A stretch of 64,000 nucleotides of DNA, from the IMG/VR virus record IMGVR_UViG_3300015371_000005, positions 1-64,000 of that record; one strand, given 5' to 3'. The notes under the pieces are model-generated. The model had not been told where the DNA came from. It saw nothing but the letters and a program-made list of their open reading frames with translations, and made no database searches. The DNA comes from a virus. Below, piece after piece: positions 3,348-63,563 of the stretch; position 1 is the stretch's first letter, and each line of letters begins with the position of its first letter. Both the position numbers and the translations under genes were made by a program.

Positions 3348-3731
3348 CTAGCTGGCACTGGCACCAACCCACCAGATTGCTCGCCAAACACATTGCACGC
3401 CATCAGCGCGAGCGATCGACATCATGTCTGCTGTCCCCTTGCCATAGCCGATCCCTACCACGAGCTTGGGCCTGCCGCGTGCCAACATCTCTCGGTTGCG
3501 TTTCGGGCCAGCGTACGCGCCCTTGCTCCAATCGGCGGGATAGGGGTCCACAGAAAGACCAAGAGCTTCGCTAGCACGGCGAGCAAGGCTGTCAACACCA
3601 GGTGCTTCGCCTTCGATGATGACAATGTGCGATCCATACTTGCGCTTGAGCGATGCAACTACGCCTAACACGTAAAGGTAGTTGGTAAAGTCACGAGGTC
3701 CACAGATCAGAATCCTCATCGGCGACTTCAT
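3348..3731 (-). CDS. DUF2493 / SLOG-family protein
   Basis: MRILICGPRDF...IIEGEAPGVDSLARRASEALGL...PADWSKGAYAGPKRNREML...GKGTADM matches the DUF2493 pattern from memory. Confidence 0.75.
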   Translation of the reverse strand: MKSPMRILICGPRDFTNYLYVLGVVASLKRKYGSHIVIIEGEAPGVDSLARRASEALGLSVDPYPADWSKGAYAGPKRNREMLARGRPKLVVGIGYGKGTADMMSIARADGVQCVWRAIWWVGASAS

Positions 3732-3734: not shown

Positions 3735-4250
3735 TCAGCCATTGTAAATCAGCTCGCGGCGAATGTGCATCCACGTCTCTCCGAGCCAGTTCTGGCCCTC
3801 CTTGGCGCACTTCGGCCTGCCGCAAATGCAATTGCCCCAGAAGTTGTCGTGCCAATCGTTCTCCTCGATCAGCGCGCCGCCATCGGTGAAGAGGAGCTGT
3901 TGACGGATGTAGCCCCAATCGTCAACCTTCTTCTGGATCAGTTCGAGCATCACATCTACGCGGCGCTCATTCCACGCAATCAGCTCGTCTTCTGTCAGCT
4001 TCCAGCGGCGTCCGAGCTTCTTGGCCTGGTACGGAGTCCTGGCCTTGAGGATGATCGCCTGGCGCCACGGGTGCCCCTCGTGCTTGGCCGCCTGGAACTC
4101 ACCCTCGACGTGCGATCCATCATGCTCGACGTAGAAGTTCGACAACCAGTTGTGCTGGAGCTTACCATCGACTCTCAACGAGAACCAGACAACCGACTTG
4201 CGAGCACTAGACTGGGAGTTTGTCACCACTGCGCTTCTCGCGGAGGACAC
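3735..4250 (-). CDS. NADAR (DUF1768, YbiA-like) family protein
   Basis: Family-like motifs WLSNFY...EGEFQAAK...NFWG...GQNWLGETWMHIRREL. GTG start at 4250 with SD AAGGGAG 6 nt upstream. It overlaps the helicase gene end by 44 nt. Confidence 0.75.
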   Translation of the reverse strand: MSSARSAVVTNSQSSARKSVVWFSLRVDGKLQHNWLSNFYVEHDGSHVEGEFQAAKHEGHPWRQAIILKARTPYQAKKLGRRWKLTEDELIAWNERRVDVMLELIQKKVDDWGYIRQQLLFTDGGALIEENDWHDNFWGNCICGRPKCAKEGQNWLGETWMHIRRELIYNG

Positions 4251-9454: not shown

Positions 9455-9597
9455 CTTCTGCCGCACCCGAAGCAGCGATACCACGCCATTGTGCTGATGA
9501 ATCTGATTACGCCGCCGCAGTGATGGCACTTGCCAGTACGACCGTCATCCGAGTTGATGATTTCGTTGTAGATCTGTGGCGGTAGCTGAGGAATCAT
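9442..9597 (-). CDS. small zinc-ribbon protein
   Basis: CHHCGG...CFGCG pairs. ATG at 9597 overlaps the helicase stop (ATGA). Confidence 0.6.
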   Translation of the reverse strand: MIPQLPPQIYNEIINSDDGRTGKCHHCGGVIRFISTMAWYRCFGCGRRWTL

Positions 9598-11785: not shown

Positions 11786-11818
11786 TGTCTTGCTTTCTAT
11801 CTGATTGACTAAGTGTGT

Positions 11819-24100: not shown

Positions 24101-25117
24101 ATCATCACCTGAGCGGACTGCCTGCTCAAGCGCCCTCTGTGCATCAAGTTGCGAGAGCACTGCACCGTCTGCCGCGCGCTTGGCATCCTGCTCGGCAACG
24201 ATCATGTCATGTAGCTGGCGCGTGGCATCACGGCGCGCTGTGGTGATGCCTTCCTGTGCCAACTGACTTTGACGCTCAGCTTGCGTCAGGCGGTCGTGTG
24301 CGTCCCCAACACCCTGCAATGCACTTGTAAGACTGTCATTGGCGTTGGCAATTGCATCAGCGCCGTCAGCTTCCTTGCGTGCTGACTGGAAGCGAGCCTG
24401 TGATTGCGCTTGCTGCAACTTGGTTGCTTGCTGTACAGCATCGATCGTGGCCTTGACCCGCGTCATTGCGCCGATCAGCAGCCCGATTGCAGGTAGAGCT
24501 TGCCCAATGCCGGCGACAAGGATACCGCCGAGCGCCACGCCAGCCTGTGCCGCCGATGCTGCAACCGCTACGAGTTCGCCGCCAAGACCAACCAGTACGG
24601 TGATGAGCTGCTGTGCGAATCCAATTGCAGCAAGGAGTGCGATGCCGCGAAGCTGATTGTCGAAGGAACCGACACCCTTGCCAGCGTAGTTGTAGGCGTC
24701 GCCTGTCTTTCTTACTGCCGCCCCATGTCTGTCAACATCTCTGGTAGTCGAGCGAACCGTGCCGCCGGTGCTTCTAATGCTGTTCGTAAAGCTTCGTGTC
24801 GATCTGCTCGTACCATCGAATCTGCCGCCAACTCTTGCAAGTGCATTGTCGATGTTCTTGAGTGAATTGTCGGCGTCATCACCATCACCAGCGAAGTTGC
24901 GTAGTTCAGAACGCCATGCCTTCAGCTTATCGGTGAGGTTGCCGACTCTGCGGTTCATCGAGGTCAGGCGCGTGTTCAGGCCATCGATATCTCCACCAAG
25001 CCGCCGTGAATCATTGGCAAAGCCACGCAGCTCGACACGAGCCTTGGCGAACGCTGCCGCCATCTCATCTCTCGCACGGAGAATGATTCGGAGCACATAC
25101 TCTACATCTGTCGGCAT
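18143..25117 (-). CDS. tape measure protein with embedded metallopeptidase-like and lysozyme-like domains
   Basis: 2324 aa, directly downstream of the chaperone pair, with long Ala/Gln/Arg coiled-coil stretches and hydrophobic Gly/Ala segments. SDHFFHRALD plus HEDHVHLAMP lie at about 20840-21100. GNFTQESGLDPSRVQPGGPGRGLAQWGGGRF lies at about 20400-20500. Confidence 0.9.
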   Translation of the reverse strand: MPTDVEYVLRIILRARDEMAAAFAKARVELRGFANDSRRLGGDIDGLNTRLTSMNRRVGNLTDKLKAWRSELRNFAGDGDDADNSLKNIDNALARVGGRFDGTSRSTRSFTNSIRSTGGTVRSTTRDVDRHGAAVRKTGDAYNYAGKGVGSFDNQLRGIALLAAIGFAQQLITVLVGLGGELVAVAASAAQAGVALGGILVAGIGQALPAIGLLIGAMTRVKATIDAVQQATKLQQAQSQARFQSARKEADGADAIANANDSLTSALQGVGDAHDRLTQAERQSQLAQEGITTARRDATRQLHDMIVAEQDAKRAADGAVLSQLDAQRALEQAVRSGDDLAVQHAQAALEEAKANVQRTRLEARRQTSDTGRAVSGGVEGMEGLQQAKRAADDAARAVEQANQGVQNSERAVTRATRGIETARRNAQEAVSGTQTAAANLNFLLSQLSPAERRLYEAIRRIQRTWKTAWTGPGGIMDPIIDSFTRSVDRVNRIMQMPSVLQTARRLATSMGQQFDRITDSFTSDKQVAQFSRLAELGRKNLQPLTTLLIRLGRAFTNIAEGASPAFSRFLGFVNQLALRFLRLTSNQGKVEEFFLTAERHLESWINLTIAVVNFFAAISGAGGAAEGKRSIDALTAALDGWTKRINRDGSGVRRFFKQVHEVTGQIVRVLVALGRELAKAFSPDKTEHFADFLVRVVIPALGMLIKVTGTFANLFAIAFGNPIISQITQVILTITALGFIIRRVEGAALLLRVGFGEIFKIGPSFVALGSRVAAYGRTLAFAGDAQVAYAGKTTLLTRAFTLIGPAIARAGVIIRAAAAFAFGPWGLAIGAVILAIILLDKKFHFLGATFKWLQGAVRDTLDWLKTHWPLVLTILTGPFGLAVTIIAKNWDKIKHGVRAAFDAIVDLFQGGGGRIGEAMRTIGRLILRYSPVGILARIGVNMAKALYGKFGDTIIGFFKDIGEWLFRHVIKPIYDFFEIKSPSGLFERIGKNLARGLINGFKQLPHLLSDLIHGMGDALESIGKRIGEALLRGIKKIGGIFKSIGSFLADPFTSGGGGDGSTSTSIRGALGGPVPGGFGGGDRIPALLEPGEHILTKSEVQAAGGHRAIFALRAILGGGGQSSGLGYAAGGAAQNNPQGTWVADQRQLNIEKALNRDMEKEDRRTEDVRVKQVSEMWEDIKRITRRGANYVEAQWRDMRVNTTATTKRMLSDAVEAWTKTWRQLDKLAYEGLFYIGHESNLALTAFGGKAIDFHLTAPTVQRRAEGGFMVPGSGSGDKIPALLEPGEFVFNKVATNKIGRSVLEFLNFQGIPRFAKGGFTGPGHSGEGFTPMWNFAKSKFGMSYFTGFDGHSKMTTSNNVSDHFFHRALDMGNGVLTAGEDALNAFIKTKIPQVIKQLIWRSIDQIGGFNIGDHEDHVHLAMPDQYAFDGSIMAKILSRASRGLSITDLLKAGTDDIGAPLIDHVDHVAVRGPRGPFRSMMQRMFNLVRRAGNKRLDSVAMAGADPGLEKALGIGASIQGKGIFSFFRSQGFSPAQAAAWVGNFTQESGLDPSRVQPGGPGRGLAQWGGGRFAALVDFAKGLGKPWQDAGAQLAFVMHELNGPERSAMMSIRSAHTIADAVAAIATQYERAGIIGDRLSPARAAYNAYAHFAQGGIVPGGDGTPVPIIAHASEWILNRLQQSKLARMLGVSVEGLKGALGFHGRPGNAQGGLDVPEPRVVHGGPIDVSAIKQFTEFVKQLATIKLPDLGQDTFRSVSNLFEDIGNVFDRVRRLSGLANKARKSAERDVALKAFFSALDKITGEGQLLDRLRTSIDRRVTQAARRLTLDRFRVGAGRVVTERLSGPQLAERQLQDVRGQRTDLLSERDEIAQELKRVQGTSRKGLSAKQKQRLQAQENDLKTRLDDAQGRVADNIQAIFDAQQALLEARIAEQQEAVDNITKSAERQSSFLDFSRRVATVFGNQGALAQINAAQRGILADEANQLEARIGAAAASGATDLADQLEVQVADLRTQIVESLAAELADAAQRIQAQGQRRSSRLDLFSRLLAATGTIGQTAAVSLGGESFSAAGLAAQQQANTANQISQTQELLNRVQREQPENVQLIEQLTDSLADLSVTIQEQARAAFIARVEDVNARADFTLGINDLNKQILDLQGQIAGQADQAGLLVLAQQRQGILTQKGNELQALYNEAIANRDQQAINDLQKAVLENKVALLQNTVTLNELAGVMKDPQTFSSSAWSIFREAIFSGMGQVLPQFSFPMADTGGIVSRTGLMQLHAGELIRSAGSWTDKMDGGDTFNIYEAGRPIDTTELTGVIAFARKTHQ

Positions 25118-30087: not shown

Positions 30088-31161
30088 CTAGGGGGTATCG
30101 TCGTGGTAGATGTTCGCGTACAGGAACGCCTCGGGGCGACGCAGGCGAACCATGCGACGCGATGCCTGACGCAGAAGGCGCGTATAGACGCCTTCGCCCT
30201 TGAGGATGATCTCGGACTGCGGACCGGGCAGGAACACCGTGTCGTTGGGACCGGACTTGATCTCGACCGGGCCGTTCAGCGTTTCTGCGATCGGCAGGCC
30301 GTTGACCGAGTATTCGGTCGTGATCAGGATCGAACCGAGAGGAAGGAACCTGGTGTGATCCTCGCGGCGCTTGGACGCACCGACGGACTCATCCCTGTAA
30401 GCCTCATTGGTGGGGACGAAAGTCGTACCCTGAGGCAGGAGCTTGAGAACGTCATCCAGCGTGGGCATGAACGGTTGCCCGACATCCACGTTGAAATACG
30501 TCCGGAGCTTCGCGTTGTTGACGATCAGGTCGGCGTCCTCATCGCTGAGGTGCACGCGACGGGCCGGCGATCCCGCTGCCGTGGTTGCGGTCTGCATCCA
30601 CGTCTTGAGATCGTTGACCGGATCGGCGTTCGTGAGATCCGTCCACGGAACTGCTGTCTGCGGCTTGTTGCCGACAGGGATCGGGTAGTCGATGACAAGC
30701 GCGGTGTCACGCTGCTGATACTCGATCGTGAGCTGTCCTGCGAATGCCTGCCAGCGCATCCACTCGGTCAGTCGTTCGTTGCGGCGTTCGAGAATCTGTC
30801 CGATCTCGACCAGGCGACGTGCCTCGCGGCTCGCCAGCCTTTCTCCACCTTGCGTCAGGATCTCCCAGCGACGCGGAGAAATGCGATGGGCTTCATCGAG
30901 ATATGCCATCTCAATGACTTCCTCGCGCTCCTCGCGACCGGTGATGTCCATCAGCGGGATTGACGCTTCAGGCGCTCGGAACTGACCGATGCCAGTAGCG
31001 TGGAGATCTTCGACTCGCATGGAGACGTACTGTGAGTCGGAATCCGCCATCGGAGCGATCTGCTCTCCAATGTACGGCGCCAACTCCATTTCCGTCTCGA
31101 CCTCACCGGCGATTGCGTCCGTCAGTGCGGCTTGATCCATGATGTCGTCAATGACTGCCAT
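30088..31161 (-). CDS. major capsid protein (lambda gpE-like family)
   Basis: 357 aa with a strong SD. The C-terminal segments RFLPLGSILITTE and RRPEAFLYANI resemble lambda gpE NFLPDNTMVLGNT and ADPDEFVSVQL (from memory). It follows the decoration-like gene. Confidence 0.7.
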   Translation of the reverse strand: MAVIDDIMDQAALTDAIAGEVETEMELAPYIGEQIAPMADSDSQYVSMRVEDLHATGIGQFRAPEASIPLMDITGREEREEVIEMAYLDEAHRISPRRWEILTQGGERLASREARRLVEIGQILERRNERLTEWMRWQAFAGQLTIEYQQRDTALVIDYPIPVGNKPQTAVPWTDLTNADPVNDLKTWMQTATTAAGSPARRVHLSDEDADLIVNNAKLRTYFNVDVGQPFMPTLDDVLKLLPQGTTFVPTNEAYRDESVGASKRREDHTRFLPLGSILITTEYSVNGLPIAETLNGPVEIKSGPNDTVFLPGPQSEIILKGEGVYTRLLRQASRRMVRLRRPEAFLYANIYHDDTP

Positions 31162-34674: not shown

Positions 34675-35250
34675 ATGCGTACCACCATAGGACGGTTCCT
34701 GCTTACCGTCATACCGATTGTCAGTATCCTTGTGGTGCCGGCAATGGCCAGTGCCAAGCAGGGTTCATCCCCGCCTCTCAAGCGCGAGCTGAAGAAGTAC
34801 AGCGCCTTATGGCATGCAGCTCACAAGGAGTGCGGTGACTGCTCGGGGCGTAACATCCGCCGGTACGGGATGAGGACGCCAAAGGGCAGGGTGATTGACA
34901 ATCCGTCAGCCACCCACTTCGCAAAGACCATTCGTCAGTTGCGGATGATTCGGATGCCGATGCTGAGCGGCCATCCGCCAGCTCAGCCCCCAGCCGGTGT
35001 GCACACAGCAAGAGCGCTTGGCGGTGTGGCGGCATGTATCCGGCAGCACGAGGCAGGTGGCAACTACGCCACGAACACGGGTAACGGTTACTACGGTGCG
35101 TATCAATTTGATATCGCAACGTGGCATGCAGCAGGCGGAACCGGCAACCCGGCGACCGCGAGTCCGGCTGAGCAGGACGCGGCCTTTGCAAGATGGTGGC
35201 CTGGTCACCACGGCGCATGGCCTCTGACCAGCCGTATGTGCGGCTACTAG
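34675..35250 (+). CDS. secreted protein with Rpf-like (transglycosylase-like) domain
   Basis: Signal peptide MRTTIGRFLLTVIPIVSILVVPAMASA. The C-terminal segment CIRQHEAGGNYATNTGNGYYGAYQFDIATWHAAGG...AWP...CG matches the Rpf/transglycosylase-like pattern. Confidence 0.8.
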   Translation: MRTTIGRFLLTVIPIVSILVVPAMASAKQGSSPPLKRELKKYSALWHAAHKECGDCSGRNIRRYGMRTPKGRVIDNPSATHFAKTIRQLRMIRMPMLSGHPPAQPPAGVHTARALGGVAACIRQHEAGGNYATNTGNGYYGAYQFDIATWHAAGGTGNPATASPAEQDAAFARWWPGHHGAWPLTSRMCGY

Positions 35251-35534
35251 GATGACACAGGTGCAGGGTTCCTGGACGGACCTGGGAGCCCTGCGCCAGG
35301 CATGCGCTCGCCCTCATCGTTCCAGACAAGCACTCCTGAAGCGATGACGATGCTTGCCAAGTGAGTTGTCGTCTTTGCTCCTGTGTTGCGCTTGGCTCTC
35401 CGCAGATGATCCTTGACGTTCGACAACGAGTAATTCATCTTGTCGGCTACTTCTGTCAGCGTCAAGCCATTACACAGGTGGCAGATGACCTCTAGCTGTA
35501 GCATTGTCAGGGCGCCTGTGCCATTGCTGCTCAT
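35247..35534 (-). CDS. LuxR/GerE-type HTH regulator
   Basis: LTMLQLEVICHLCNGLTLTEVADKMNYSLSNVKDHLRRAKRNTG. ATG at 35534 overlaps the upstream stop (ATGA). Confidence 0.75.
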   Translation of the reverse strand: MSSNGTGALTMLQLEVICHLCNGLTLTEVADKMNYSLSNVKDHLRRAKRNTGAKTTTHLASIVIASGVLVWNDEGERMPGAGLPGPSRNPAPVSS

Positions 35535-35824
35535 CGAATCAGAGCCTCCTGTTCCTCCATCAGCCGGTGAACGCGCTGTTGTGCAAGCCTGTTTACAGCG
35601 TTTATCCTGCCGAACTTCTCTAGTTGGATCTCGCCAATCCTGGTGATAGCCGCACAGCGCTTGCGCAGGTACTCCATTCGCTTGGTGCTGAGCCGGATCA
35701 ACGCCTCGTACGGACACATGGTGCAGGTTATGTAAACCTCTATGACAGTATCGCTGCCTTTATGCGAGCGATGACGAAGCGGGAAGCGCTGCTCCGAGTT
35801 ACAGTAGGGGCAGTTAGCAATCAT
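35531..35824 (-). CDS. zinc-ribbon protein
   Basis: CPYC...CTMC pairs. 97 aa from the internal ATG. Confidence 0.55.
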   Translation of the reverse strand: MIANCPYCNSEQRFPLRHRSHKGSDTVIEVYITCTMCPYEALIRLSTKRMEYLRKRCAAITRIGEIQLEKFGRINAVNRLAQQRVHRLMEEQEALIR

Positions 35825-41283: not shown

Positions 41284-42438
41284 TCAGCCACCGAACTCGT
41301 AGGCACCGATGTCAACTCCATTGCCCTGTTGCCGTGGCGCGAGCGCGTAGTCGTCTGCTGGGGCTCCGACCGCTGACCCGGCATCGATCGCTGGCGACCC
41401 TGCCTGTGGCCTGTAGTTGGCATCGAGCAGCGGATTTGAGAGCAGATCGCCGGTTCCGGTACCGGGTGAGGTGCCCCCGAACCAGATGTTGTGATCCTCG
41501 GCGAACGTGCCCACGCCCTTCTCCCACTGCGTACCTCCGTCGCTGCGAACGAAGATGTTGTTGCGGATGGTGCCGCTGGTAGGACCGGCCACCTCGCCGC
41601 ATGACGTTGTGATTGACGCACGGCGCCATGTACCGACAAACGTATTGTTGTGGACGCTGACATTCGTCGCCTTGTCGCAGATGAACACACCGGTGGAATG
41701 GTTCACCACGAGGTTGTCGTAGAAATCGATGTTGGCACCCTGACAATCATGGTACATGTGCAGAGCGCCGCCAACCGAGTTACCCATCCAGTTGTGATCG
41801 ATCGTGATGTCGTGGTTGGCACCACAGGCACCGCCGGCCGTGTAAACATCATGGTCATTCTCTATGCGCGGGGCTCCATCGCCGTTGCACTCGGGCCAGT
41901 CAGCTCCATTGAAGGTGAACGTGTTGCCCGTGATCCGCAGGAAACTGGAAGAGCTGGGCGTGATGACGCCGTTACCAAAGCAGTTGTCGAAGTGCTGCAT
42001 CGTGATACCAGGTCCGAGCGTTATGTAGCTCTTACCTGATGGAATCCACAGCTCTCCGTTGACACCGCCGGTTGTACACCAGTTTGTCCGCGCTCCGCTG
42101 GTCTGGATCGGGCAATTGCCGTCGAGTATCGGAGTCTGCCCGGTGACTGCTCTGACCTCTGTCCAGTTTCCCGATGTGCCGGAAGGAATCGGATTGAGCG
42201 TATTGTCCAGGTTGGCGTAGGTTCCGCCATAGAGATTCAGATCGTCACCGCTGGCCAGCTTGGCGATGCCCGATGTCAATGAGCATGGCGAGGCGCTTGA
42301 ACAGGTGGTCCCAGTTCCCGTAGGAGAAGCGAAGAAGCCCGACTGAGGTGGCGGTGTTCCGGTGACAGCGACGGCGATACCTATAGCTGATGCTGCGATA
42401 CCGCCAGCAATCAAGACACGTGCTCGGCGTAGGCCCAT
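41284..42438 (-). CDS. secreted right-handed beta-helix protein (pectate-lyase-fold, depolymerase-like)
   Basis: N-terminal RR plus a hydrophobic signal (MGLRRARVLIAGGIAASAIGIAVAVTG). Repetitive segments NNxFxG/HDNxV/IxxN are typical of parallel beta-helix repeats. Confidence 0.65.
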   Translation of the reverse strand: MGLRRARVLIAGGIAASAIGIAVAVTGTPPPQSGFFASPTGTGTTCSSASPCSLTSGIAKLASGDDLNLYGGTYANLDNTLNPIPSGTSGNWTEVRAVTGQTPILDGNCPIQTSGARTNWCTTGGVNGELWIPSGKSYITLGPGITMQHFDNCFGNGVITPSSSSFLRITGNTFTFNGADWPECNGDGAPRIENDHDVYTAGGACGANHDITIDHNWMGNSVGGALHMYHDCQGANIDFYDNLVVNHSTGVFICDKATNVSVHNNTFVGTWRRASITTSCGEVAGPTSGTIRNNIFVRSDGGTQWEKGVGTFAEDHNIWFGGTSPGTGTGDLLSNPLLDANYRPQAGSPAIDAGSAVGAPADDYALAPRQQGNGVDIGAYEFGG

Positions 42439-42760: not shown

Positions 42761-42999
42761 TGCTTACCTCCAAACTCGCGCTCAATTGAATTTGCTGTTT
42801 CGTGGTCTGGCATCGTTGGGCCATCGTCTGTGCGTAGCCACTCAATCACATCGCGCAGGCAGATTGAACGGTCGAGCCCGAGCTTAGGGCTATGCGCGGC
42901 GTTCAATGTCAGGCTGACATGCCCTCCCCACGGGCCGTGGAAGTGCTCGGTCATAGCAGCCTCCGCAAACTCAATCGCCTTTGCACTCGGTCCGCTCAT
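42757..42999 (-). CDS. hypothetical protein
   Basis: 80 aa, preceded by CTGACAAC-ACT-AGGAGG. Confidence 0.6.
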   Translation of the reverse strand: MSGPSAKAIEFAEAAMTEHFHGPWGGHVSLTLNAAHSPKLGLDRSICLRDVIEWLRTDDGPTMPDHETANSIEREFGGKQ

Positions 43000-43153
43000 C
43001 CATTCCTCCTAGTGTTGTCAGTTACACCGCTGCCGGGTGCCGGCGCTCCCAGGGTCTGCCTGTTTAGACCGTGGCTCTTGTCACTCATGGAAGTTGAGCT
43101 AGAGCCAGCCACCGACACCACGGCAACGGCGCGATCAATCCTATCAAACCCCG

Positions 43154-43480
43154 TCAACCACCGCTCGGCGCTCTCACTAAACTCAGTTCGTCGGAACCTA
43201 ATTGCTGAAAGCAGTTTCGCTCGTAAAATGCAAGCAGCTCAGCATTCCTCAATCCTGTTCCATCACTCTCAACCTTCAACAATAGGGTTGCACGCTCGCG
43301 ATCGGCGTGATCACACACCACCTTGAGCAAGCGCGAAGCAGAACCTCTTCCCCTAGAACCAGGTTGAACCCACACAGAGGTCACCAACCAGCAGTTGGCG
43401 CGACCAAGATCAACCACATCACCGAGCCCCATCAGCGTGATATTCGATCTATCAACATGATTCCAGTAAGAATTCTTCAT
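43154..43480 (-). CDS. short GNAT-family acetyltransferase-like protein
   Basis: The segment VQPGSRGRGSASRLL resembles the acetyl-CoA motif A. It is only 108 aa and is the first gene of the leftward operon. Confidence 0.55.
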   Translation of the reverse strand: MKNSYWNHVDRSNITLMGLGDVVDLGRANCWLVTSVWVQPGSRGRGSASRLLKVVCDHADRERATLLLKVESDGTGLRNAELLAFYERNCFQQLGSDELSLVRAPSGG

Positions 43481-43486
43481 TCTGTG

Positions 43487-43522
43487 AGTCTATCAGCGCC
43501 CTCAGAACGCCCTCCCGGAGGG
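43487..43522 (-). promoter_or_regulatory. extended -10 TGATAGACT (6 nt from the ATG) plus 13-bp palindrome CCCTCC-C-GGAGGG
   Basis: The minus strand reads TGATAGACT-cacaga-ATG. The palindrome at 43510-43522 sits where a -35 or operator would be. Confidence 0.35.
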
Positions 43523-43616
43523 TACTGGAAGGGGAAATCACGGCAAATCAATGCGATTTTTAGTCAATTTCTCCGCATTTTCCTTCGGAATCGTGCCGAC
43601 TTCCCTGCAATTTAGG

Positions 43617-43679
43617 CGATTTCAAGCCGAATCATGCACGTTTCAAGCAGATTCTTACACGTTTCACGGCATTTCAATC
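43617..43679. repeat. iteron-like direct repeats CG(A)TTTCA at about 20-nt spacing
   Basis: Copies are CGATTTCAAGC (43617), CGTTTCAAGC (43639), CGTTTCACGG (43659) and GCATTTCAATC (43669). More degenerate copies extend to about 43730. Confidence 0.6.
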
Positions 43680-43759
43680 ACATTTTTGTGTCATTCTGGT
43701 TCGTTTCGACGTGTTTCTACGAGGCCCTCCTCCAATCGCTCCCTCCTGAGTCCTCGCGC

Positions 43760-44771
43760 AACCTGATTACATACAGTAATCAGTAGTGCCTACCTGATTT
43801 CCTATGTCATGCAAGTTTCGTGGCGCGTAAGAGACGTACTGGTTTCACCTGAGGCACACTGGTTTACATCCTTGGCCCAGGCCCCCCGATCAACCGGATT
43901 TCGGCGCATGGGTGCCCCCGATTGGCGGGAACTTGATTGACATGAAACCAAATTGATAACAAACCCGATTGTCGTGCGTTGGGCGTTTCAAAATGAGCCG
44001 ATCTGAGGCTCTACTCTGTAATCAGGTTTCATGGAATTTGCAGGGTAATCAGATTCAGGGGTACTAGGACCCGGGTCGCGCGTAAATATCATTTGTTACA
44101 AGCTTCGCCAGCGGGGGCGCGTGCGGGGGAGGGTCTCGTCCTAGGACGCAATCTTGTTTCAGACAATTCCATTGCAGATAGTCTAGTAATTCGATTGTTC
44201 CGTGGTGGTCCCTTCTAGCTAAGGAGGGGTGGAAGGGGGCGGAAGGGGCAGAGGGAGCGGAGGGGGCGGGATCGGCTGGGCAGGGGAGACTCTGAGGGAG
44301 TCCCTACGGGAAGCGGACGGATCGGTGGGGACTGACGAGAGGTACTGGCCTAGCTGGCGCCTGGACGGACGAGGGACTGACCTACCGGCGCCTGGTCACT
44401 GTTCTCCGCGCCAGCCGAACCCGATTGACTGGAAACTAGGTTGTCAGGGGCCATTTGTCTATGAAACCTGATTGTAGAGCGGGGGTAGTTGGGGCTCTCG
44501 TCTCCGTAGTAACTACTGATCTTCCCTCAGGGTGAACTACTGAGATTCATCTAGTAGATTGATCAACCAGATTCTATGGAATGCCTGCAAATGAGCATGT
44601 TTTGGGCCGATTTGGCTTGCAATCAAATAGACCGTGGAAACCCGATTGATACGCCCGATTCAGGTCCTAGGTAAATCAGGTTGAATGAGCGGCAATGTGC
44701 CAAGCAGGGTGACAAATAGTTCGGATGAAACCCCTGCAAATCAGCACATTCGGTGAGTTGTAAATCAGGTT
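43760..44771. repeat. array of at least 10 exact AACCNGATT motifs in both orientations, plus degenerate copies
   Basis: Plus-strand copies start at 43760, 43892, 43962, 44418, 44465, 44565 and 44639. Inverted AATCAGGTT copies start at 44020, 44674 and 44763. About one copy per strand would be expected in the whole window. Confidence 0.8.
44221..44300 (+). repeat. polypurine G-tract cluster (G-quadruplex-capable)
   Basis: At least 8 runs of 3 or more G within 80 nt (AAGGAGGGGTGGAAGGGGGCGGAAGGGGCAGAGGGAGCGGAGGGGGCGGG...). Confidence 0.7.
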
Positions 44772-44789
44772 TGCGGGAAACTACGGATA

Positions 44790-45690
44790 TCGCTGCGGGG
44801 GCCGGGTGCCGTTCAGTGGAGTGCAGCACCGAGGACCACCCGGCAGGCGAAGCGGGTGGGGCGGGAGCATCGCCACGGGAGCCTCACCCATGCCAGCCCT
44901 GCGGCTGGCGCAAGCGAACGGGGGTTGCCCCGGGGCGCGTTGTCACCCTTGCGACGGCGCGCTGGACATACCCGCAAGGGGCGTGCATTCCACCGAACGG
45001 ATGCTCGCGGGACTGGCAAGTGGCGCGAAGGAAGCGTTGCCTGCGCGGTGGGAAACCGGGTTTACTCCCGTTCGGTCTCACGGCGCAGGACCGGGCACAT
45101 ACACTGGCCCGGGAAAGCGACTGATGTGCGGTCACCCAACAGTGCGAATGCATGCATACGCAAGTACGCTGCAAATGGAAACTGCCAACTAGTTTCCCCG
45201 ATCCTGTAGTTCCCGCCGAACGGCCGAGTGTACGCCGGTAAGGCGCGGAAGGGGAGGGTGAGGCGAATGGAAACAAGCGTCAAGTACGCACCAGGGACCT
45301 ATGCACGTATCACCCGGCCACGGTGGGTGGGCGTATGAATGGCGGTCAGTCAAGCGGGTTACCCCCGTGCGGTGAAACCGAACGTGAGCAAGCGTACGCA
45401 ACGCTTGGAAGGATGGCGCAGTAAGCGCAGCGGATGCCCGCTCGTACGGGGGCTAGGAAACCGGGCCGACGCCGGACTGAAATAAGGTTGCGAAGTAACG
45501 CGGTGTACCGTCCAGCGAGGGTTTCCCGCTGTCGATGGGTGACGTGTGAACGCTGTGAGTAAACGGTGAGCACATCCTGCCATGAGTGAGGACAAGCGAG
45601 CGTACGCAATGATCCGGGCAAGTCTCGCGCTAAGAACGCGAGTGTCAATGTGGCTTCAAAACCCGCTTGCCCATTGCCTGACAACACCAC
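44790..45690 (+). ncRNA. candidate large structured non-coding RNA or structured leader (class unknown)
   Basis: No credible ORF. More than 12 hand-paired hairpins with 5-8-bp stems. Recurrent GAAA and RGUAA loops appear only on the plus strand. GTACGC recurs 5 times. The region is co-oriented with the downstream genes. Confidence 0.45.
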
Positions 45691-45706
45691 CCGAAAGGAC
45701 GGCATC

Positions 45707-45847
45707 ATGGCCGCCACCGCACAGAAGACCCCTGCCAAGACCAAGCAGGTTGAGCCGCCCGAGAACGGGCCGGCATACGACGAGATGACCAAGTACGGCA
45801 CCCACGCCTGGGACGAAGCGTTCCTCAACGTCGGGCGCTACAGCTAG
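45707..45847 (+). CDS. hypothetical small protein (46 aa)
   Basis: The ATG is preceded by CTGACAACACCACCC and GAAAGGA. Confidence 0.4.
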   Translation: MAATAQKTPAKTKQVEPPENGPAYDEMTKYGTHAWDEAFLNVGRYS

Positions 45848-45978
45848 CCCCTACGGTCCAGCACCCTGCCCCTTAGAAGCGCGACCACCATTGCGCACAA
45901 CGGCCTGCCGTGAGAACGGCCCGGGTTCGAGATCCCGGAGGGGGCACTAGACCCTGCCACCATACGAAAGGCACCACC

Positions 45979-46098
45979 ATGCTCGCCGTCGTCTTGATTG
46001 TCACGCTGTACCCGCTGTTCCTGTCCATCTTCGTCGGCATTGACAAGCTGACCGGCTGGACGATCGCCGATGCCTTCGGAAAGGATGCCCCGCGATGA
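45979..46098 (+). CDS. hypothetical small membrane protein (39 aa)
   Basis: Hydrophobic segment MLAVVLIVTLYPLFLSIFVGI. The stop overlaps the next ATG. Confidence 0.45.
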   Translation: MLAVVLIVTLYPLFLSIFVGIDKLTGWTIADAFGKDAPR

Positions 46099-46280
46099 CG
46101 TACATGGATGCCCTCACGGGCGCGACTCGAACCAACGCCCCTGTCGTCAAGGTTGCCACCATCGCCGACCGTAGGTCCGGGCAGCGCGTGGCAGCGGCGA
46201 TGGAACGTCGCGACGACGACTCACGAGACTTCCGCACCGTCCGCGCGGTGATGAGCCAGCGCTACGGAGTCTGCGGCTGA
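46095..46280 (+). CDS. hypothetical protein (61 aa)
   Basis: ATGA overlap with the upstream ORF. Confidence 0.5.
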   Translation: MTYMDALTGATRTNAPVVKVATIADRRSGQRVAAAMERRDDDSRDFRTVRAVMSQRYGVCG

Positions 46281-46702: not shown

Positions 46703-46793
46703 CCCGTGAGGAGAGCTGCCACCAAAGGTGACGGCTGTCCCAACGGCAGCAATCCCGTTGCCGCTGACAACCAAACTCCCATAGGAGGGAACC

Positions 46794-47610: not shown

Positions 47611-47982
47611 ATGGTCCTGCTTCACAATGACTTCACCGTAGGGCCGTCTGGCGCCCTTCGCAAGGAACGCTCACACAACGGTGGAGCGCGTCCCAACGCC
47701 TACCAGCGACGCTCGAACAAGCGCTATCTGCTGTCGCCCGAGGCTGGCTTCGGTGGCAACGGCTCCGTAGTCCCCTGCGCTCACTGTGGCAAGGAACTTG
47801 ACTTTGCCGCTGTCGAAGCCGATCGCGCGAAGCCGGGCAGCAAGGGTGGCGGTTACCAGCAATGGAACCTCGTTCCCTCCTGCTCGCCGTGCAACAAGCG
47901 TCGCGGTGACAAGTCACTGTGGAGCTTCAATCCTTCGCTCGCGCGTCGCATGGCGCGGCGCAGAAAGGCTACAAATGTCTGA
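47611..47982 (+). CDS. HNH endonuclease
   Basis: CAHCG...GGYQQWNLVPSCSPCNKRRGDK matches an HNH/zinc pattern. Confidence 0.7.
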   Translation: MVLLHNDFTVGPSGALRKERSHNGGARPNAYQRRSNKRYLLSPEAGFGGNGSVVPCAHCGKELDFAAVEADRAKPGSKGGGYQQWNLVPSCSPCNKRRGDKSLWSFNPSLARRMARRRKATNV

Positions 47983-50036: not shown

Positions 50037-50438
50037 TAGGGTGTCGAATTTCGTGGGCAAAGATAAGTCCGATCTAAGGGAAGGTAAGGTGGTCGTTTGA
50101 AGACGAAGCGCCCGGTGGCCCCTTGGACTCCGGCGGGTACACTCTCAATCTAACTAACACTCGTAAGCAGCGCAGAGTAGCATCGTAGCTGTAACCGTTA
50201 CTGCTGTGCTGTAGGCGAGCACACAAGCCTGTCAAGCAGGCTGCTGGTACCGATAGGGTGGCGCTCAACGAGTTTGTCACCCCGCTACTAGCCCTAACGT
50301 CAGGTCCGAGTGCGTGTCGAGTCAGCGTTGTCAAATGGATTCGCGATCTATTAGGCGACCAGCATCGAGCACTCCACGTATTCGGACCTGAGGTAAGGGC
50401 GGTAAATACCGCTGACAACACCACCACCAGGAGGAACT
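50037..50438 (+). other. 400-nt non-coding, hairpin-containing leader
   Basis: No credible ORF. Long-range stem AGGTCCGA/TCGGACCT, local hairpins GCCTG-TCAA-CAGGC and GCGG-TAAATA-CCGC. It ends in CTGACAACACCACCACC-AGGAGG. Confidence 0.4.
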
Positions 50439-53174: not shown

Positions 53175-53374
53175 TGGACCCTATCGCTAACCTGATTGAG
53201 CAGCGTGAGATAGCCAAGCGCATACTTGACGAGCCCCTCATGAGCGATGATGCTGCAAGCAGACTGGCAGAGCTTGTCATCGCGCTTGACGAATGGCGCT
53301 TGATGGGCGGCTGGGACCCCTACGACAAGGCCGGAAGCTTAGTCATCAACGAACCTTACGCAGGAACAGACTGA
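53174..53374 (+). CDS. hypothetical protein
   Basis: 66 aa. TGATG overlap with the upstream gene. Confidence 0.6.
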   Translation: MDPIANLIEQREIAKRILDEPLMSDDAASRLAELVIALDEWRLMGGWDPYDKAGSLVINEPYAGTD

Positions 53375-53394
53375 CAACACCACCAGGAGGCATC

Positions 53395-54420
53395 ATGTAT
53401 AGCTACGAATGGGCGGTTGACAAGCTCAACCATGCTCGCAGCAAGGATGCGGGCAAGCCGGTCCAGAACAACACTCGCCTCTATGAGCGCGAGGATGGCA
53501 TCGCTGTCAAGTTCCATGCCGTCGATGTCGTCACCATCCATCCCGACGGGACCTACACCCTGCGCAACGGCGGCTGGAACACGGTCACCACGCTTGAGCG
53601 AATCCGTGATTTCTCACCTGCCAAGCTGGTTTCCGTCAATCAGGATAGGGGGGGCCGGGGCGATTGGTACGTTCAGCTTGAGCCCAATCCCGACGATCCC
53701 AAGCCCGAGTACGTGAACCGTCCCATCCCGGCGCCGTTCACCGAGCCCAATCCCGGTCCCAAGCCCGAGAACCCGTGGCTGGGCGACTGGTGGGAGCGCA
53801 ATCGGCGTTACCAGCAGTGCATGGATTTGCTTGACACCTACGGCTCGCTGGAAGGCTGGAAGGCCGAGCGCAAGATCCAGTACCGCGCTCGCCGCGACTA
53901 CCTCAAGGCCGAGCGCGAATGGTGGACTCGCAACTACATTCCGTTCTACGACGGTATCAAGGTTGACAGCGAAGGCTATGCGCCGCGCTTGCGTGCCGAT
54001 GGCCCGAGCCCGGCCAAGCTGCGCCGGTACGAGGCTGCCGTCAAGCAGATGAAGGCTCGCATCGACAAGTATGCCAAGGAGTACATCGACGCGCTCCGAG
54101 AGGGTATGCCAATGCCAGGTTCGGGTGATTGCTGGTTCTGCGCGATGACGGCCGAGAACGGCCAGCCACTAGGCGACGCTACCGGCAACCACGATCACCT
54201 CATCAACCATATGGAGGATGACTACTACGTCCCGAGCCTCGCTGTCAATGCGATTCGTGAGGCTGGCTACAGTGACACAGGCATCTACATCTTCCTGAAC
54301 ATAAAGCCCGAGCAGGGAACGATGGGAGGCCATGCCAATCACTTCGACAACAGGATTGTAAAGAAGAGCATTGTGTCCTATATGCGCAAGCGGCTCCTCC
54401 CACAAGCTCCGACAGAGTAA
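53395..54420 (+). CDS. hypothetical protein
   Basis: 341 aa, preceded by CTGACAACACCACC-AGGAGG. Cys/His segment GSGDCWFCAM...GNHDHLINHMEDDYY. Confidence 0.65.
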   Translation: MYSYEWAVDKLNHARSKDAGKPVQNNTRLYEREDGIAVKFHAVDVVTIHPDGTYTLRNGGWNTVTTLERIRDFSPAKLVSVNQDRGGRGDWYVQLEPNPDDPKPEYVNRPIPAPFTEPNPGPKPENPWLGDWWERNRRYQQCMDLLDTYGSLEGWKAERKIQYRARRDYLKAEREWWTRNYIPFYDGIKVDSEGYAPRLRADGPSPAKLRRYEAAVKQMKARIDKYAKEYIDALREGMPMPGSGDCWFCAMTAENGQPLGDATGNHDHLINHMEDDYYVPSLAVNAIREAGYSDTGIYIFLNIKPEQGTMGGHANHFDNRIVKKSIVSYMRKRLLPQAPTE

Positions 54421-55485: not shown

Positions 55486-57090
55486 ATGGCACAGCCTCGA
55501 AACGCAAAGCCGAAGCACAGCAGACTTGACGGGCAGGAAGTCAAGTACAAGCTCACTGACGAACAAGAAGCAATCCGACAGGCTGTCAAGCAAGGCGGCG
55601 ACGGCGTGATCGGAGCCTATGCCGGCACGGGCAAGACGTTCATGCTGCGTACGATCGCTGAGGACACTCCGCGACGCAAGTTCCACCTCGCTGCCTACAA
55701 CCGGGCGATTGCCGACGACGCGAAGAAGTCCTTCCCGCGCAACGCAACGTGCCGGACGATGCACTCAATCGCATTTCAGGCAGTCGGACTCAACTACAAG
55801 CACCGTCTGAGTTCGCCTCGTATGCGGGGTAAGGATGTTGCTCGCATTCTCGGCATCAAGCAGGGATTCCTTGTGCGCCAAGGACATTTCCTGCGCGATT
55901 GGCAGCTTGCCATGCTCGTCAATCAGACCGTCAAGAACTTCTGCTACAGCGCTGACGAGATGCCTGCGCCGCAGCATGTGCCATGGGTTCCGGGCGCTGA
56001 GGAGACGTTCGATGAGCTGTCGAACATGCTCGCACAGTATGCCGGCAAGGCGTGGATCGACATCCAGAAGCAGGATGGGATGCTCAAGTTCGAGCATGAC
56101 CACTACCTCAAGATGTGGGCGTTGACCCATCCGGTCATCCGCACCGACTGCCTCATGGTTGACGAGGCGCAGGACTCAAACCCTTGCGTCACCGGGATTG
56201 TCATGGAGCAGGATTGCCAGAAGATCCTGGTTGGCGACCAGTATCAGCAGCTCTACGCCTGGCGCGGCGCCAAGGATTCGATGGCAGAGTTTGAGTCTGA
56301 TTGGCGGCTCATGTTGTCGCAGTCCTTCCGCTTCGGGCAGGCAGTCGCGGCCGAGGGCAACAAGTGGCTCAAGCTGCTTGGCGCGACAACCGACCTGAAG
56401 GGGCTCGACTCGATCGCATCCGAGGTACGCGAGCTTCCCAACGCTCGCACCATTCTCTGCCGTACCAACGCGACGGTGATTGCCGAAGCGATGCGCGTTC
56501 AGGAGGAAGGCAATACCGTTGCCATCACCGGAGGCACGGGCGATATCGAATCATTCGCCAAGGCAGTTCAGATTCTCCAGAGCAACACCGCTCTGCCCGA
56601 GCAAGCTCAGCAGCCGGTGACACACCCTGACCTGATGGGCTTCGGAACCTGGCAGGATGTCAAGGAGTATGTCGAGGAAGAGGGCTCTGACCTCAAGGTT
56701 CTCGTTGACATGATCGATCGCTATGGCGTGCCGGCGATCATGCAAGTTGCCCACCAGTCTGTCAACGAAGATAGCGCTGACACGATTGTCTCCACCGCAC
56801 ACAAGGCCAAGGGCCGCGAGTGGAGAAGTGTGCGAATTGCAGGGGATTTCAAGGAGCCTGTCGATCCCGAGACCGGCGAGCGCAAGATCAATCGCTCAGA
56901 GTTCATGCTGCTCTACGTGGCCTGCACCCGTGCCAAGCAGGTTCTCGACAACTCAAATGTCAGCTGGGTCAATGACTGGCTGCCCGAGCGAGGCGATGAG
57001 GACAAGGGCGCGAACGAACTACTTGAGTACGAGCCCGAGACCAATGGCCGCACGATCCCGGTGGCACGTAGAAAGAGAGCACAACGATGA
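55486..57090 (+). CDS. SF1 (UvrD/RecD-like) DNA helicase
   Basis: Walker A GAYAGTGKT, Walker B LMVDEAQD, motif VI-like VSTAHKAKGREW. SD GAAGGAG. Confidence 0.8.
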   Translation: MAQPRNAKPKHSRLDGQEVKYKLTDEQEAIRQAVKQGGDGVIGAYAGTGKTFMLRTIAEDTPRRKFHLAAYNRAIADDAKKSFPRNATCRTMHSIAFQAVGLNYKHRLSSPRMRGKDVARILGIKQGFLVRQGHFLRDWQLAMLVNQTVKNFCYSADEMPAPQHVPWVPGAEETFDELSNMLAQYAGKAWIDIQKQDGMLKFEHDHYLKMWALTHPVIRTDCLMVDEAQDSNPCVTGIVMEQDCQKILVGDQYQQLYAWRGAKDSMAEFESDWRLMLSQSFRFGQAVAAEGNKWLKLLGATTDLKGLDSIASEVRELPNARTILCRTNATVIAEAMRVQEEGNTVAITGGTGDIESFAKAVQILQSNTALPEQAQQPVTHPDLMGFGTWQDVKEYVEEEGSDLKVLVDMIDRYGVPAIMQVAHQSVNEDSADTIVSTAHKAKGREWRSVRIAGDFKEPVDPETGERKINRSEFMLLYVACTRAKQVLDNSNVSWVNDWLPERGDEDKGANELLEYEPETNGRTIPVARRKRAQR

Positions 57091-57904: not shown

Positions 57905-58150
57905 ATGACTGAGGACGAGCTTCAAGCAACTTACGACAGACTCGTAGCCTACCGAGCGCGGACAATCAAGTATTACGACGAGTGTCCGGATGGAGATCCG
58001 CGCAAGGCACAGGCACTAGACAAGCTTCAAGAACTGAACGAGCGCATCAACGAGGTTGAGAGCGAGTTCGACCAGTTCGACAAGGAAGAGACCAAGCAAG
58101 CAGGTTGGACACCGATGTCACACCCGTATCATCCCGACGACCTGTTCTGA
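57905..58150 (+). CDS. hypothetical protein
   Basis: 81-aa ORF. Confidence 0.6.
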   Translation: MTEDELQATYDRLVAYRARTIKYYDECPDGDPRKAQALDKLQELNERINEVESEFDQFDKEETKQAGWTPMSHPYHPDDLF

Positions 58151-58162
58151 CAACCAGGAGGC

Positions 58163-58345
58163 ATGATGTACCACGATCTCTACATGGGTGAGCCTAAGCT
58201 GGCCCACGAGGAAGACTTCGATACCAACTTGACAACCGGACAGGTTGTCGCCCGCATAAGCCAAGCAGTCATCGATGGCGAGAAGCACGGCGATGAGCTG
58301 ACCATCGTTGTCAAGACATTCAGTCGGCGTCGCAAGATTGCCTGA
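58163..58345 (+). CDS. hypothetical protein
   Basis: 60 aa, preceded by CTGACAACC-AGGAGG. Confidence 0.6.
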   Translation: MMYHDLYMGEPKLAHEEDFDTNLTTGQVVARISQAVIDGEKHGDELTIVVKTFSRRRKIA

Positions 58346-58360
58346 CAACCGGGAGACACC

Positions 58361-58606
58361 ATGAATACCAACAACACACTTCGCTTCGCAGACGGAGACA
58401 CGCTCAACACGGTGCTGAGCATGATGAAAGGCTATACCGTGGACATGCCGGCGGCCAAGGATTACGTCGGAACGACAACGGTAGTTCTCGTCAGCGCCAA
58501 TCCGAACGGCGTGCTCGTCAACGAAGCTGACAATACCGGAGCACCGATCAAGAACGCAACATGGCTCATTCCTTGGGATGAGATCAAAGAGATCATCGTA
58601 GTCTGA
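58361..58606 (+). CDS. hypothetical protein
   Basis: 81 aa, preceded by CTGACAACC-GGGAGA. Confidence 0.6.
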   Translation: MNTNNTLRFADGDTLNTVLSMMKGYTVDMPAAKDYVGTTTVVLVSANPNGVLVNEADNTGAPIKNATWLIPWDEIKEIIVV

Positions 58607-58624
58607 CAACCAGGAGGCACCACC

Positions 58625-59884: not shown

Positions 59885-60417
59885 CTCCGATTCAACCAGG
59901 TGACATCTTCGTCAAGCCATATGGCAAGAACGAAATCGTATTGATGATGTTACCTCGTACGAAACGATCGGCCAAGCAACCCTACGCTCGGCTCTCTTCC
60001 TCGCCTGTCACCTTCGATTCGGCGTGGTGGGATAGCCGTGACATGGTAGGCGGCGCTCATAAGAACCTGCGCTACGTGGGCACCGTGCCCAAGCAGCACA
60101 TGGTCCGGCTCCTCAAGCAACGTACACGCAAACGCAGCACACTCAAGGATAGGCTCATGGCTGACTCAATGAAGTTCACAGAGCGTAGGATCATGGACGA
60201 GGACTCGGGCGTTCAGTACACGCCGTTCATCACACACGATGGCCGCGTGGGCTACGAATGCACCGACACCGCAACGGGAAGGTTCGAGTTCCTGTACTTC
60301 AACCCGAGCAACGGTAGCGATGATGGCGTTCCCAACGTCTTTGTCTACCAGGGTACGCAGAACGATCCCTACGCAGACGGCGCGGTTCACCACTACACAG
60401 TGCTTGACAACAACTAG
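59881..60417 (+). CDS. hypothetical protein
   Basis: 178 aa. ATGA overlap with the upstream gene. Confidence 0.6.
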   Translation: MTPIQPGDIFVKPYGKNEIVLMMLPRTKRSAKQPYARLSSSPVTFDSAWWDSRDMVGGAHKNLRYVGTVPKQHMVRLLKQRTRKRSTLKDRLMADSMKFTERRIMDEDSGVQYTPFITHDGRVGYECTDTATGRFEFLYFNPSNGSDDGVPNVFVYQGTQNDPYADGAVHHYTVLDNN

Positions 60418-60425
60418 GAGGAATC

Positions 60426-63182: not shown

Positions 63183-63330
63183 CGAGGCTGACATCACTGA
63201 GGTTGTCGATGAGCTTACCGACGAGCTTGACCCGATTCGCATCGAGAACGAGGCAGAACGGCTCGGCATCACCGCCGAAGAGCTACTGCATCGCATCACC
63301 AAAGAGACGCTGAGCAGGTTGGGTGACTGA
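63175..63330 (+). CDS. hypothetical acidic small protein (51 aa)
   Basis: Hand-translated as MSNEADITEVVDELTDELDPIRIENEAERLGITAEELLHRITKETLSRLGD. Confidence 0.45.
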   Translation: MSNEADITEVVDELTDELDPIRIENEAERLGITAEELLHRITKETLSRLGD

Positions 63331-63563
63331 TGCTCAAACACACGAACATCCCGCAACCAAACGAATGGGATGGTGATCGCCTGCGCCGTCTGCGTCTGTC
63401 ACAAGGATTGACAATGCGTGAGCTTGCTCAGCGCGCAAAGATTGGCCATGATCTGATCTCGCGCTTTGAAAGCGGCTGGCGTAGCCCGAACATCGAGACA
63501 GTGTACCGCTTGCAACGAGGCTTGCAATGTTCATGGCGCGAGCTACTAGGACCTGACAACTGA
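63330..63563 (+). CDS. XRE-family HTH regulator
   Basis: LRRLRLSQGLTMRELAQRAKIGHDLISRFESGWRSPNIETVYRL. Confidence 0.75.
   Translation: MLKHTNIPQPNEWDGDRLRRLRLSQGLTMRELAQRAKIGHDLISRFESGWRSPNIETVYRLQRGLQCSWRELLGPDN

Follow-up and report, generated by a model that had tools for sequence, protein, structure and literature searches.

A two-cluster array of a short asymmetric box in the non-coding gap of an uncultured soil phage, a predicted protein-binding platform and tentative candidate for a replication origin

The 64-kb window analysed here (the whole 64,000-nt stretch taken from virus record IMGVR_UViG_3300015371_000005) belongs to the ~112-kb genome of an uncultured soil phage, and the non-coding gap at which its leftward and rightward transcription units diverge holds a dense array of a short box, AACCNGATT. 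The array exists and is highly significant statistically, and it is a local feature of the window, not a dispersed one. The boxes are probably the binding array of one phage-specific protein, because the box is self-contained within 9-12 bp, is found in 12-17 copies in 1 kb of non-coding DNA and is phage-specific within an architecture common to the relatives. A replication origin is tentatively ranked first among the functions that such a platform could have, and all functional statements made below rest on sequence inference.

On both strands of the window AACCNGATT is present in 19 copies, against 1.19 ± 1.07 in dinucleotide-preserving shuffles (shuffle maximum 5). Ten exact copies are concentrated within positions 43760-44771, whereas 2000 shuffles of the 2.2-kb gap alone contained 0.07 copies on average and never more than 2, an enrichment of about 140-fold relative to the shuffled gap. 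The original prediction had listed these copies on the plus strand at 43760, 43892, 43962, 44418, 44465, 44565 and 44639 and on the minus strand at 44020, 44674 and 44763, and all coordinates and strands were verified. Its four near-copies were found as well (CCCCGATTG at ~43916, CTTGATTG at 43932, CGCCCGATTC at 44652 and GTAATCAGATTC at 44045), the longer forms GAAACC(C/T)GATTG and ATGAAACC are both present, and the claimed enrichment survives dinucleotide shuffling of the window and of the gap alone. A weight matrix built from the array gave the consensus (G/C)AAACCnGATT(G/T), with information limited to about 10 positions and a conserved core of 9-12 bp; this core is the near-palindrome AAYCnGRTT, but it is asymmetric in use. 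Scanning with the box matrix located 12 boxes of at least 14.7 bits within 43760-44771, where the array boxes score 14.7-22.7 bits, plus about five weaker ones. With a 19-nt matrix the only sites of at least 15 bits outside the gap are at 43281, 55039 and 60488, and the lower-scoring matches outside the gap are mostly located inside coding sequence.

The gap and its flanks, with guanine-plus-cytosine (GC) content and open reading frames (ORFs) where relevant, contain the following features.

43154-43480, minus strand: GNAT acetyltransferase gene, the first leftward gene and left flank of the gap (Pfam Acetyltransf_1, E = 3e-6; also called in near-identical contigs of the Joint Genome Institute, JGI)
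43481-43750, no strand: AT-rich segment of 42-47% GC with orphan GTTTCA half-boxes (composition profile, k-mer enrichment)
43620-43666: 21-nt tandem repeat inside the AT-rich segment (Tandem Repeats Finder)
43760-44055, no strand: box cluster A (exact matches, matrix scans)
44035-44045, minus strand: inverted CCTGCAAAT element with boxes 44020 and 44047 close on either side (direct reading of the sequence)
44137-44148, no strand: CGTCCTAGGACG, a perfect palindrome of 12 bp among the several CTAGGAC copies of the gap
44226-44395, plus strand: G-rich spacer of 70% GC (composition, repeat and G-quadruplex scans)
44225-44269: 9-nt G-rich repeats in the spacer
44226-44286: 61-nt G-quadruplex-type run in the spacer
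44319-44335: spacer block common to the relative L007
44329-44395: 31-nt tandem repeat in the spacer
44418-44771, no strand: box cluster B (exact matches, matrix scans)
44582-44604, plus strand: conserved element TGCCTGCAAATGAGCATGTTTTG (matches in the relatives L007 and L210)
44800-45706, plus strand: GC-rich (55-74%) stretch, untranslated, that precedes the first rightward ORF (no coding-quality ORF)
45707-45847, plus strand: first rightward ORF, of 46 amino acids, preceded by a start-associated CCTGACAAC motif; right flank of the gap

Leftward genes reach the GNAT gene and rightward genes begin at 45707; no coding-quality ORF was found between 43480 and 45707. Both clusters follow the same internal plan, forward boxes first and reverse boxes after. 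Cluster A has six forward boxes (43760, 43791, 43892, the weak 43930, 43946 and 43962) and then reverse boxes at 44020 and 44047 (palindromic variant AATCAGATT), with an extra weak reverse box at 44150. Cluster B, separated from cluster A by a 370-bp G-rich spacer, has five forward boxes (44418, 44465, 44565, 44639 and the weak 44652) followed by two reverse ones (44674 and 44763). The centre-to-centre distance between boxes ranges from 13 to 105 bp within clusters and is 268 bp between them, with no constant phase. The closest boxes, ~16 bp apart at 43930, 43946 and 43962 and 13 bp apart at 44639 and 44652, suggest by this spacing of 13-16 bp a cooperative loading. The best box of each cluster is contained in a 22-nt inverted repeat (44014-44035 and 44458-44479) arranged approximately symmetrically about the spacer, whose G-quadruplex motif is the only one on the plus strand in 64 kb.

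Other short sequences are also concentrated in the gap. GTTTCA occurs 10 times there and 9 times across the other 62 kb, CTAGGAC four times against two in the rest of the window, and CTGCAAAT four times and nowhere else in the window by k-mer count. GC content falls to 42-44% at 43550-43700, compared with the window average of 57%, and the AT-rich segment at 43481-43750 could be a DNA-unwinding element or just the leftward promoter region. A second, diverged copy of the TGCCTGCAAATGAGCATGTTTTG element is located at 44731-44746. In the GC-rich stretch after cluster B there are two degenerate boxes, the palindromic AACCGGGTT at 45054 and a reverse one at 45481, as well as a patch common to the window and L007 (44871-44885); no large diverged tandem repeats were found in 44800-45700. 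A minus-strand ORF of 68 amino acids at 44623-44829 was rejected as a gene candidate, having only an 8-residue stretch in common with an L007 protein. A 30-nt sequence of the window at 44727-44760 (CCCCTGCAAATCAGCACATTCGGTGAGTTG) agrees at 26 positions with the reverse strand of L007 8320-8350, in the 3' part of a gene for 73 amino acids (peptide LTECADLQ); it may be a captured gene fragment, or a regulatory element embedded in the L007 gene.

The original prediction had also taken CTGATTG copies in other control regions as sites of the same system, and this part did not stand. The copies at 1178, 6896, 11801 and 34123 score less than 11.5 bits with the box matrix or fall under its 9-bit cut-off, and 27 of the 37 copies in the window lie within coding sequence; the copies outside the array are background. 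CTGATTG as such is about threefold over-represented in the window (37 against 11.5 ± 3 expected), with a strand bias in the leftward-transcribed arm (1-43 kb; 18 plus, 7 minus) that may be a codon-usage effect. The leaders at 1178-1184 and 11797-11807 have a longer motif in common, TTTC(C)TATCTGATTG, which is not related to the array; one copy directly precedes the point where the minus-strand gene 699-1160 starts.

Several known classes of element were compared with the boxes. Dispersed operators, such as the stoperators of Cluster A phages or the conserved inverted repeats of phiC31, are distributed genome-wide, mostly between genes and in an orientation tied to transcription; the boxes are not of this type, since high-scoring copies are almost confined to the gap. 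When 15 box sites were aligned with 45 nt on either side, no position outside the box exceeded 0.8 bit, and a scan of 43000-46200 detected no sigma-70-type promoter. The boxes are not a promoter family, because nothing is conserved at a fixed distance from them. DnaA boxes (TTGTCCACA, one mismatch allowed) are not enriched in the window, and their only match in the gap, at 45587, is outside the array. A conserved structured RNA is likewise unsupported, because Rfam gave no match at gathering score in the whole window and only chance-level ones in the gap (E = 0.9-3.9), the fold z-scores of 44780-45706 were only -1.6 and -2.7 on the two strands, and this segment aligned too poorly with four relatives for covariation to be analysed.

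The window is assigned to a widespread uncultured lineage of 105-120-kb phages, because a protein of 375 amino acids (53293-54420) has ~100 metagenomic homologues, many of them on contigs of that size, with about 20 complete relatives of 105-120 kb among them; an identical copy is encoded on a JGI contig of 112,325 bp. The gap and 25 kb of the window had no BLASTN match in the GenBank phage collection, whether in near or in distant mode; in tblastn the capsid protein had matches of only 28-30%, in Marinitoga viruses, and a head-module protein of 444 amino acids had none. Single-protein scans of IMG/VR for relatives gave no match, and a metagenome scan mostly short contigs, none with the gap. 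A genome scan returned one distant contig of 46% GC binned as Saccharibacteria, which was uninformative, and a search for homologues of the HNH protein only two relatives, whose contigs end at the gap. The 14-mer CCTGCAAATGAGCA, tried as a probe, had more than 119 matches, none on a 105-120-kb contig and apparently due to chance. Complete equivalent gaps are hence available from two contigs only, L007 (523-2026) and L225 (7454-8848), and partial ones from L210 (right-hand 1.2 kb), L209 and L207.

Two contigs from sister samples (L001 and L002, 99.9% identity) carry the same ten boxes and are uninformative on conservation because they are near-identical to the window. In the gaps of L007, L225 and L210 no AACCNGATT was found. 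Lack of conservation in related phages had been named beforehand as an argument against the array; it is true literally, in that two relatives are without the box, but these relatives have short repeats of their own at the same place. The repeats are CGCGCACG (five times) and an inverted pair of TGGTAAACAGTG in L007, CGCGCAC-type in L210, and AATAGTGA, TTTCACC, three CGCAAATTGCG palindromes and two copies of GGAATGCGGGTTTGAGG in L225. Different short repeats at the same position argue for phage-specific specificity rather than absence of function; what is peculiar to this phage is the box sequence, and the architecture around it is common to the relatives. Part of this architecture is recognisable at the sequence level. 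The motif TGCCTGCAAATGAGCA-N2-TTTTG is common to window 44582-44604, L007 1060-1082 and an intergenic copy in L210, and the TGCCTGCAAATGAGCATGTTTTG element which coincides with it in the window is identical at 21 of 23 bases to L007 1060-1082 and at 19 of 21 to the opposite strand of L210 2018-2038. A G-run ending in GGGGACTGA and the sequence CGCCACGGGAGCCTC are also common to the window and relatives, and L007 has a spacer-like G-run at the corresponding position, as does L210 in weaker form.

The partly palindromic element CCTGCAAAT(G/C)AGCA is conserved in the lineage and becomes in L128 and L005 the near-perfect palindrome CCTGCAAATGCAGG. Its copies, and the gene-free stretch that accompanies the repeat region, are located as follows.

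CCTGCAAAT element, window: 44035-44045 (minus strand), 44584-44597, 44733-44746, 45168-45176
CCTGCAAAT element, relatives: L007 601-611, 1060-1082 and 1289 (minus strand); L128 ~1519; L005 ~3157; L210 2018-2038 (minus strand)
GC-rich gene-free stretch: window 44800-45706; L007 1340-2026; L210 600-1240; L225 8290-8848

The CCTGCAAAT elements recur in the intergenic early regions of the relatives in either orientation, and are probably sites for a conserved regulator. The window boxes interleave with them: in addition to those around the inverted copy, other boxes are positioned 10-15 bp from two forward copies. In all relatives examined the repeat region is separated from the first rightward gene by 0.55-0.9 kb of GC-rich DNA in which no gene was called. 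Its conservation is patchy (for example CGCCACGGGAGCCTC and GGTAAGGC-CGGA-GGGAAGGG), and it could act as a long leader, as primer RNA or through DNA-level signals. The gene of the left flank differs in every relative, being GNAT in the window, an ORF of 178 amino acids in L007, which looks secreted from its N-terminus, and a cysteine-rich ORF of 77 amino acids in L225. In L007 and L225 the first rightward gene has 74% amino-acid identity, yet repeats and left-flank genes are different; the central part of the gap is thus apparently exchanged as a module. The contigs L005, L128 and L207 start or stop at most ~0.7 kb from the right edge of the equivalent gap, at differing positions, which suggests strain-level hypervariability or difficult sequence, not fixed genome ends.

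The window is part of a tailed-phage genome and also encodes tail proteins. The genes that bear on the function of the array, or that locate it in the genome, are these.

2186-3403: primase
4207-5571: DnaB-like helicase
9594-11102: second helicase
18143-25117: ORF of 2324 amino acids in the tail-gene block, presumed tape measure from position and size only
30088-31161: major capsid protein
47611-47982: HNH protein
55486-57090: UvrD-like helicase
63330-63563: XRE helix-turn-helix protein

That the gap holds a multi-site platform for one sequence-specific protein at the divergence of transcription was the central claim of the original prediction, and it is supported by the self-contained box of 9-12 bp with no fixed partner, the strong clustering and the ORF-poor gap between the GNAT gene and the first rightward ORF. 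Of the functions proposed for the platform, origin and operator array are favoured, and partition and packaging centres are not, as no ParA, ParB or terminase was found in the window. The origin is placed first for the number of boxes and their two-cluster geometry, for the AT-rich repeats beside them and the G-rich tract between the clusters, and because gene orientation switches in the gap, where a long stretch is untranslated. One phage-specific DNA-binding protein would recognise the boxes and load cooperatively onto the two clusters of ~300 bp each, giving a large complex of protein and DNA at the genome's central non-coding region. This complex would mark a replication origin built as an iteron-like array beside an AT-rich segment able to unwind; the G-rich tract surrounded by the array would hold an R-loop or G-quadruplex and supply the primer, and replication and transcription would depart in both directions. 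Protein binding to the boxes, and the opening of DNA or start of replication upon binding, are what we infer from this arrangement.

Twelve strong and about five weak boxes in both orientations within 1 kb are far above the needs of a simple operator and support an origin. In the same direction count the AT-rich segment with its 21-nt tandem repeats, which adjoins cluster A, and the change of both gene orientation and local GC skew within the gap. The replacement of the box in relatives may be likened to that of iterons, which differ between incompatibility groups, and the origin of the lactococcal phage c2 is also located in a non-coding gap between divergent gene blocks. In the ori/crr system of phage P4, type I iterons of 8 bp in both orientations form two clusters bound by the alpha primase-helicase. 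The array resembles it in having a short asymmetric box in both orientations and two clusters of about six in non-coding DNA, but the P4 clusters are 4.5 kb apart instead of 370 bp, the box sequences are unrelated, and the binding protein is known for P4 but none emerged from the window for the boxes. Streptomyces oriC, with 19 DnaA boxes in two clusters, has a comparable layout of many asymmetric 9-bp boxes in mixed orientation and with irregular spacing over ~1 kb; it differs in that the array box is not a DnaA box and the genome is that of a phage, not a chromosome. Finally, the ~0.9 kb of untranslated DNA after the array recalls the transcribed non-coding regions that are origins in non-RepA actinobacteriophages (PMC7157519).

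A number of observations weigh against an origin. No initiator gene was found beside the array, the small ORFs that flank it have no match to a DNA-binding domain, and the primase, the DnaB-like helicase and the second helicase are encoded 32-41 kb away. Classical iterons are direct repeats of 17-22 bp in helical phase, unlike these boxes of 9-12 bp with mixed orientation and irregular spacing, and the gap has no DnaA-box cluster. The cumulative GC skew drops up to the gap and is then flat rather than rising, and the local skew switch is mostly the G-tract itself. The tight flanking of a conserved, partly palindromic element by boxes resembles an operator-promoter interplay, and the relatives with a complete gap are only two.

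An operator or enhancer array is possible too, and nearly as likely as an origin because of its position and of this close flanking of the palindromic element. A phage-specific regulator coating both clusters would then act on the divergent early promoters, as repressor, activator or timer, and might loop the DNA between the clusters. Such a role would suit the site, between the diverging leftward and rightward transcription units, and the location of two boxes close on either side of the inverted CCTGCAAAT element (44020-44055) with others at 10-15 bp from the forward copies, the more as this element, CCTGCAAATGCAGG in L128 and L005, recurs between early genes of the relatives and so resembles a conserved regulatory site. 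Outside the gap, two of the highest-scoring boxes (51810 and 55039) are positioned where no gene was called, the box sequence varies among relatives as in heteroimmune phages, and the window encodes an XRE protein and two sigma-region-4-like proteins (35247-35717 and 194-1102), its only helix-turn-helix candidates. The operators O1-O3 of phage Mu are a multi-site region between divergent promoters that doubles as a transposition enhancer, and their ~nine short asymmetric sites, in both orientations and clustered between leftward and rightward promoters, are similar to the array; but the Mu region covers ~200 bp with the repressor gene adjacent, and the array 1 kb with no adjacent regulator found. 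For an operator, 12-17 sites over 1 kb are unusually many, and the lack of a detectable sigma-70-type promoter in the gap, of anything conserved at a fixed distance from the boxes and of a regulator gene next to them argues in the same sense. Neither an integrase nor a CI-type repressor was seen in the window, and for this reason a lysogeny switch at the gap is not established.

A centromere-like partition site of the parS or parC type, in which a ParB- or ParR-type protein would occupy the two clusters of an extrachromosomal prophage, is improbable. Its closest formal match in layout is RedRock, whose parS-L and parS-R loci, each of eight copies of an 8-bp motif, flank parAB (Wetzel et al. 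2020, PMC7157519), next to a non-RepA, RNA-based prophage origin (PMC7157519). Both systems have two clusters with about eight copies of an 8-9-bp motif beside an ORF-free non-coding region, and the host of the present phage is, as for RedRock, probably an actinobacterium. The RedRock repeats, however, are direct and arranged around parAB, whereas those of the array are in mixed orientation around a G-rich spacer, with no parAB in 64 kb. An extrachromosomal prophage would agree with the lack of an integrase in 64 kb and with accessory genes often seen in temperate phages, among them one for an Ltp-like superinfection-exclusion lipoprotein; the partition centre is nevertheless disfavoured because neither ParA nor ParB was seen in the window, where the Walker-A proteins are only the DnaB-like and UvrD-like helicases and the strong Pfam or PHROG matches of 99 ORFs include no ParB. 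The clusters, moreover, flank non-coding DNA rather than parAB genes, and their boxes are not direct repeats; a distant par operon in the other ~48 kb of the genome is conceivable.

Less probable still is a packaging recognition site (pac or cos) or genome-end region, with a small terminase bound to boxes on either side of the cut site. The pac site of P1 has hexamer clusters bound in this way, and the two clusters around a central spacer, as well as the contigs L005, L128 and L207, whose ends fall near the right edge of the corresponding gap, would be compatible with this function. A search of the window for a terminase gene was negative, so that none adjoins the gap, which has small early-type genes on both flanks; packaging is disfavoured for this reason. 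Each of the relatives' contigs breaks at a point of its own, and assembly breaks would be accounted for just as well by hypervariability between co-occurring strains. Other contigs, among them the source contig of the window, L007 and L225, run straight through the gap. Early promoters in tandem, whose -35 element would be the 3' part of the box (ATTGAC, ATTGAT), are hardly credible: several boxes do end in TTGACA, TTGACT or TTGATA, but the 15 aligned sites have no -10-like or other conserved position at a fixed distance, the promoter scan of 43000-46200 was negative and the boxes face both directions in non-coding DNA.

Some other features of the genome were recorded. An Rpf-type transglycosylase domain is encoded in the window and, together with an extreme avoidance of restriction palindromes, hints at an actinobacterial host; avoidance of this kind is a trait of broad-host-range Streptomyces phages. 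TTAA is absent from the window (139 copies expected from base composition, 32 from a Markov model) and from all fetched relatives of the lineage (L005, L006, L007, L128, L209, L210, L213, L214 and L225; ~150 kb in total). Equally absent from the window are CCGCGG, GGGCCC, ACGCGT, AGGCCT, CTCGAG, CTGCAG, GAGCTC, GGATCC, GTCGAC, TTCGAA and TCTAGA, and CAGCTG is present once. CcrM/GANTC and CtrA sites have no meaningful enrichment, and a tRNA search of the window found none. Just upstream of many start codons there is a start-associated sequence, CTGACAAC followed 2-12 nt on by GGAGG, at these sites.

42999-43030 (minus strand), 45680-45706, 46760-46793, 50400-50438, 58140-58162, 58340-58360, 58600-58624 and 60400-60425: CTGACAAC start-associated sequence

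In L128 (200-2040) most early genes have their start codon overlapped by the analogous TGTCAACAATG. The start-associated sequence resembles those of Cluster K mycobacteriophages. The secreted beta-helix protein encoded 1 kb left of the gap (41284-42438, minus strand) has a 66%-identical homologue in L004; its gene is taken as a mobile accessory gene because the surroundings of that homologue are unrelated and non-syntenic.

Clusters of binding sites are commonplace in phage control regions, and the array is of a familiar kind, that of iteron or operator arrays, in an uncharacterised phage lineage. A further idea, which we regard as unlikely, is that the gap is a previously undescribed replicon-control locus of the uncultured 105-120-kb soil phages. 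A conserved scaffold would combine a tract prone to G-quadruplexes or R-loops with the partly palindromic CCTGCAAAT boxes and a long GC-rich stretch that is not translated, and would carry swappable phage-specific box arrays that set replication or immunity specificity and let related phages coexist in one host. More generally, the exchange of box arrays in a conserved scaffold is suggested as the way in which specificity evolves in the lineage, whose early genes are almost all without recognisable function. If the array is an origin or a master control site, it would provide a first handle on the biology of a widespread lineage of soil phages that has no cultured member.

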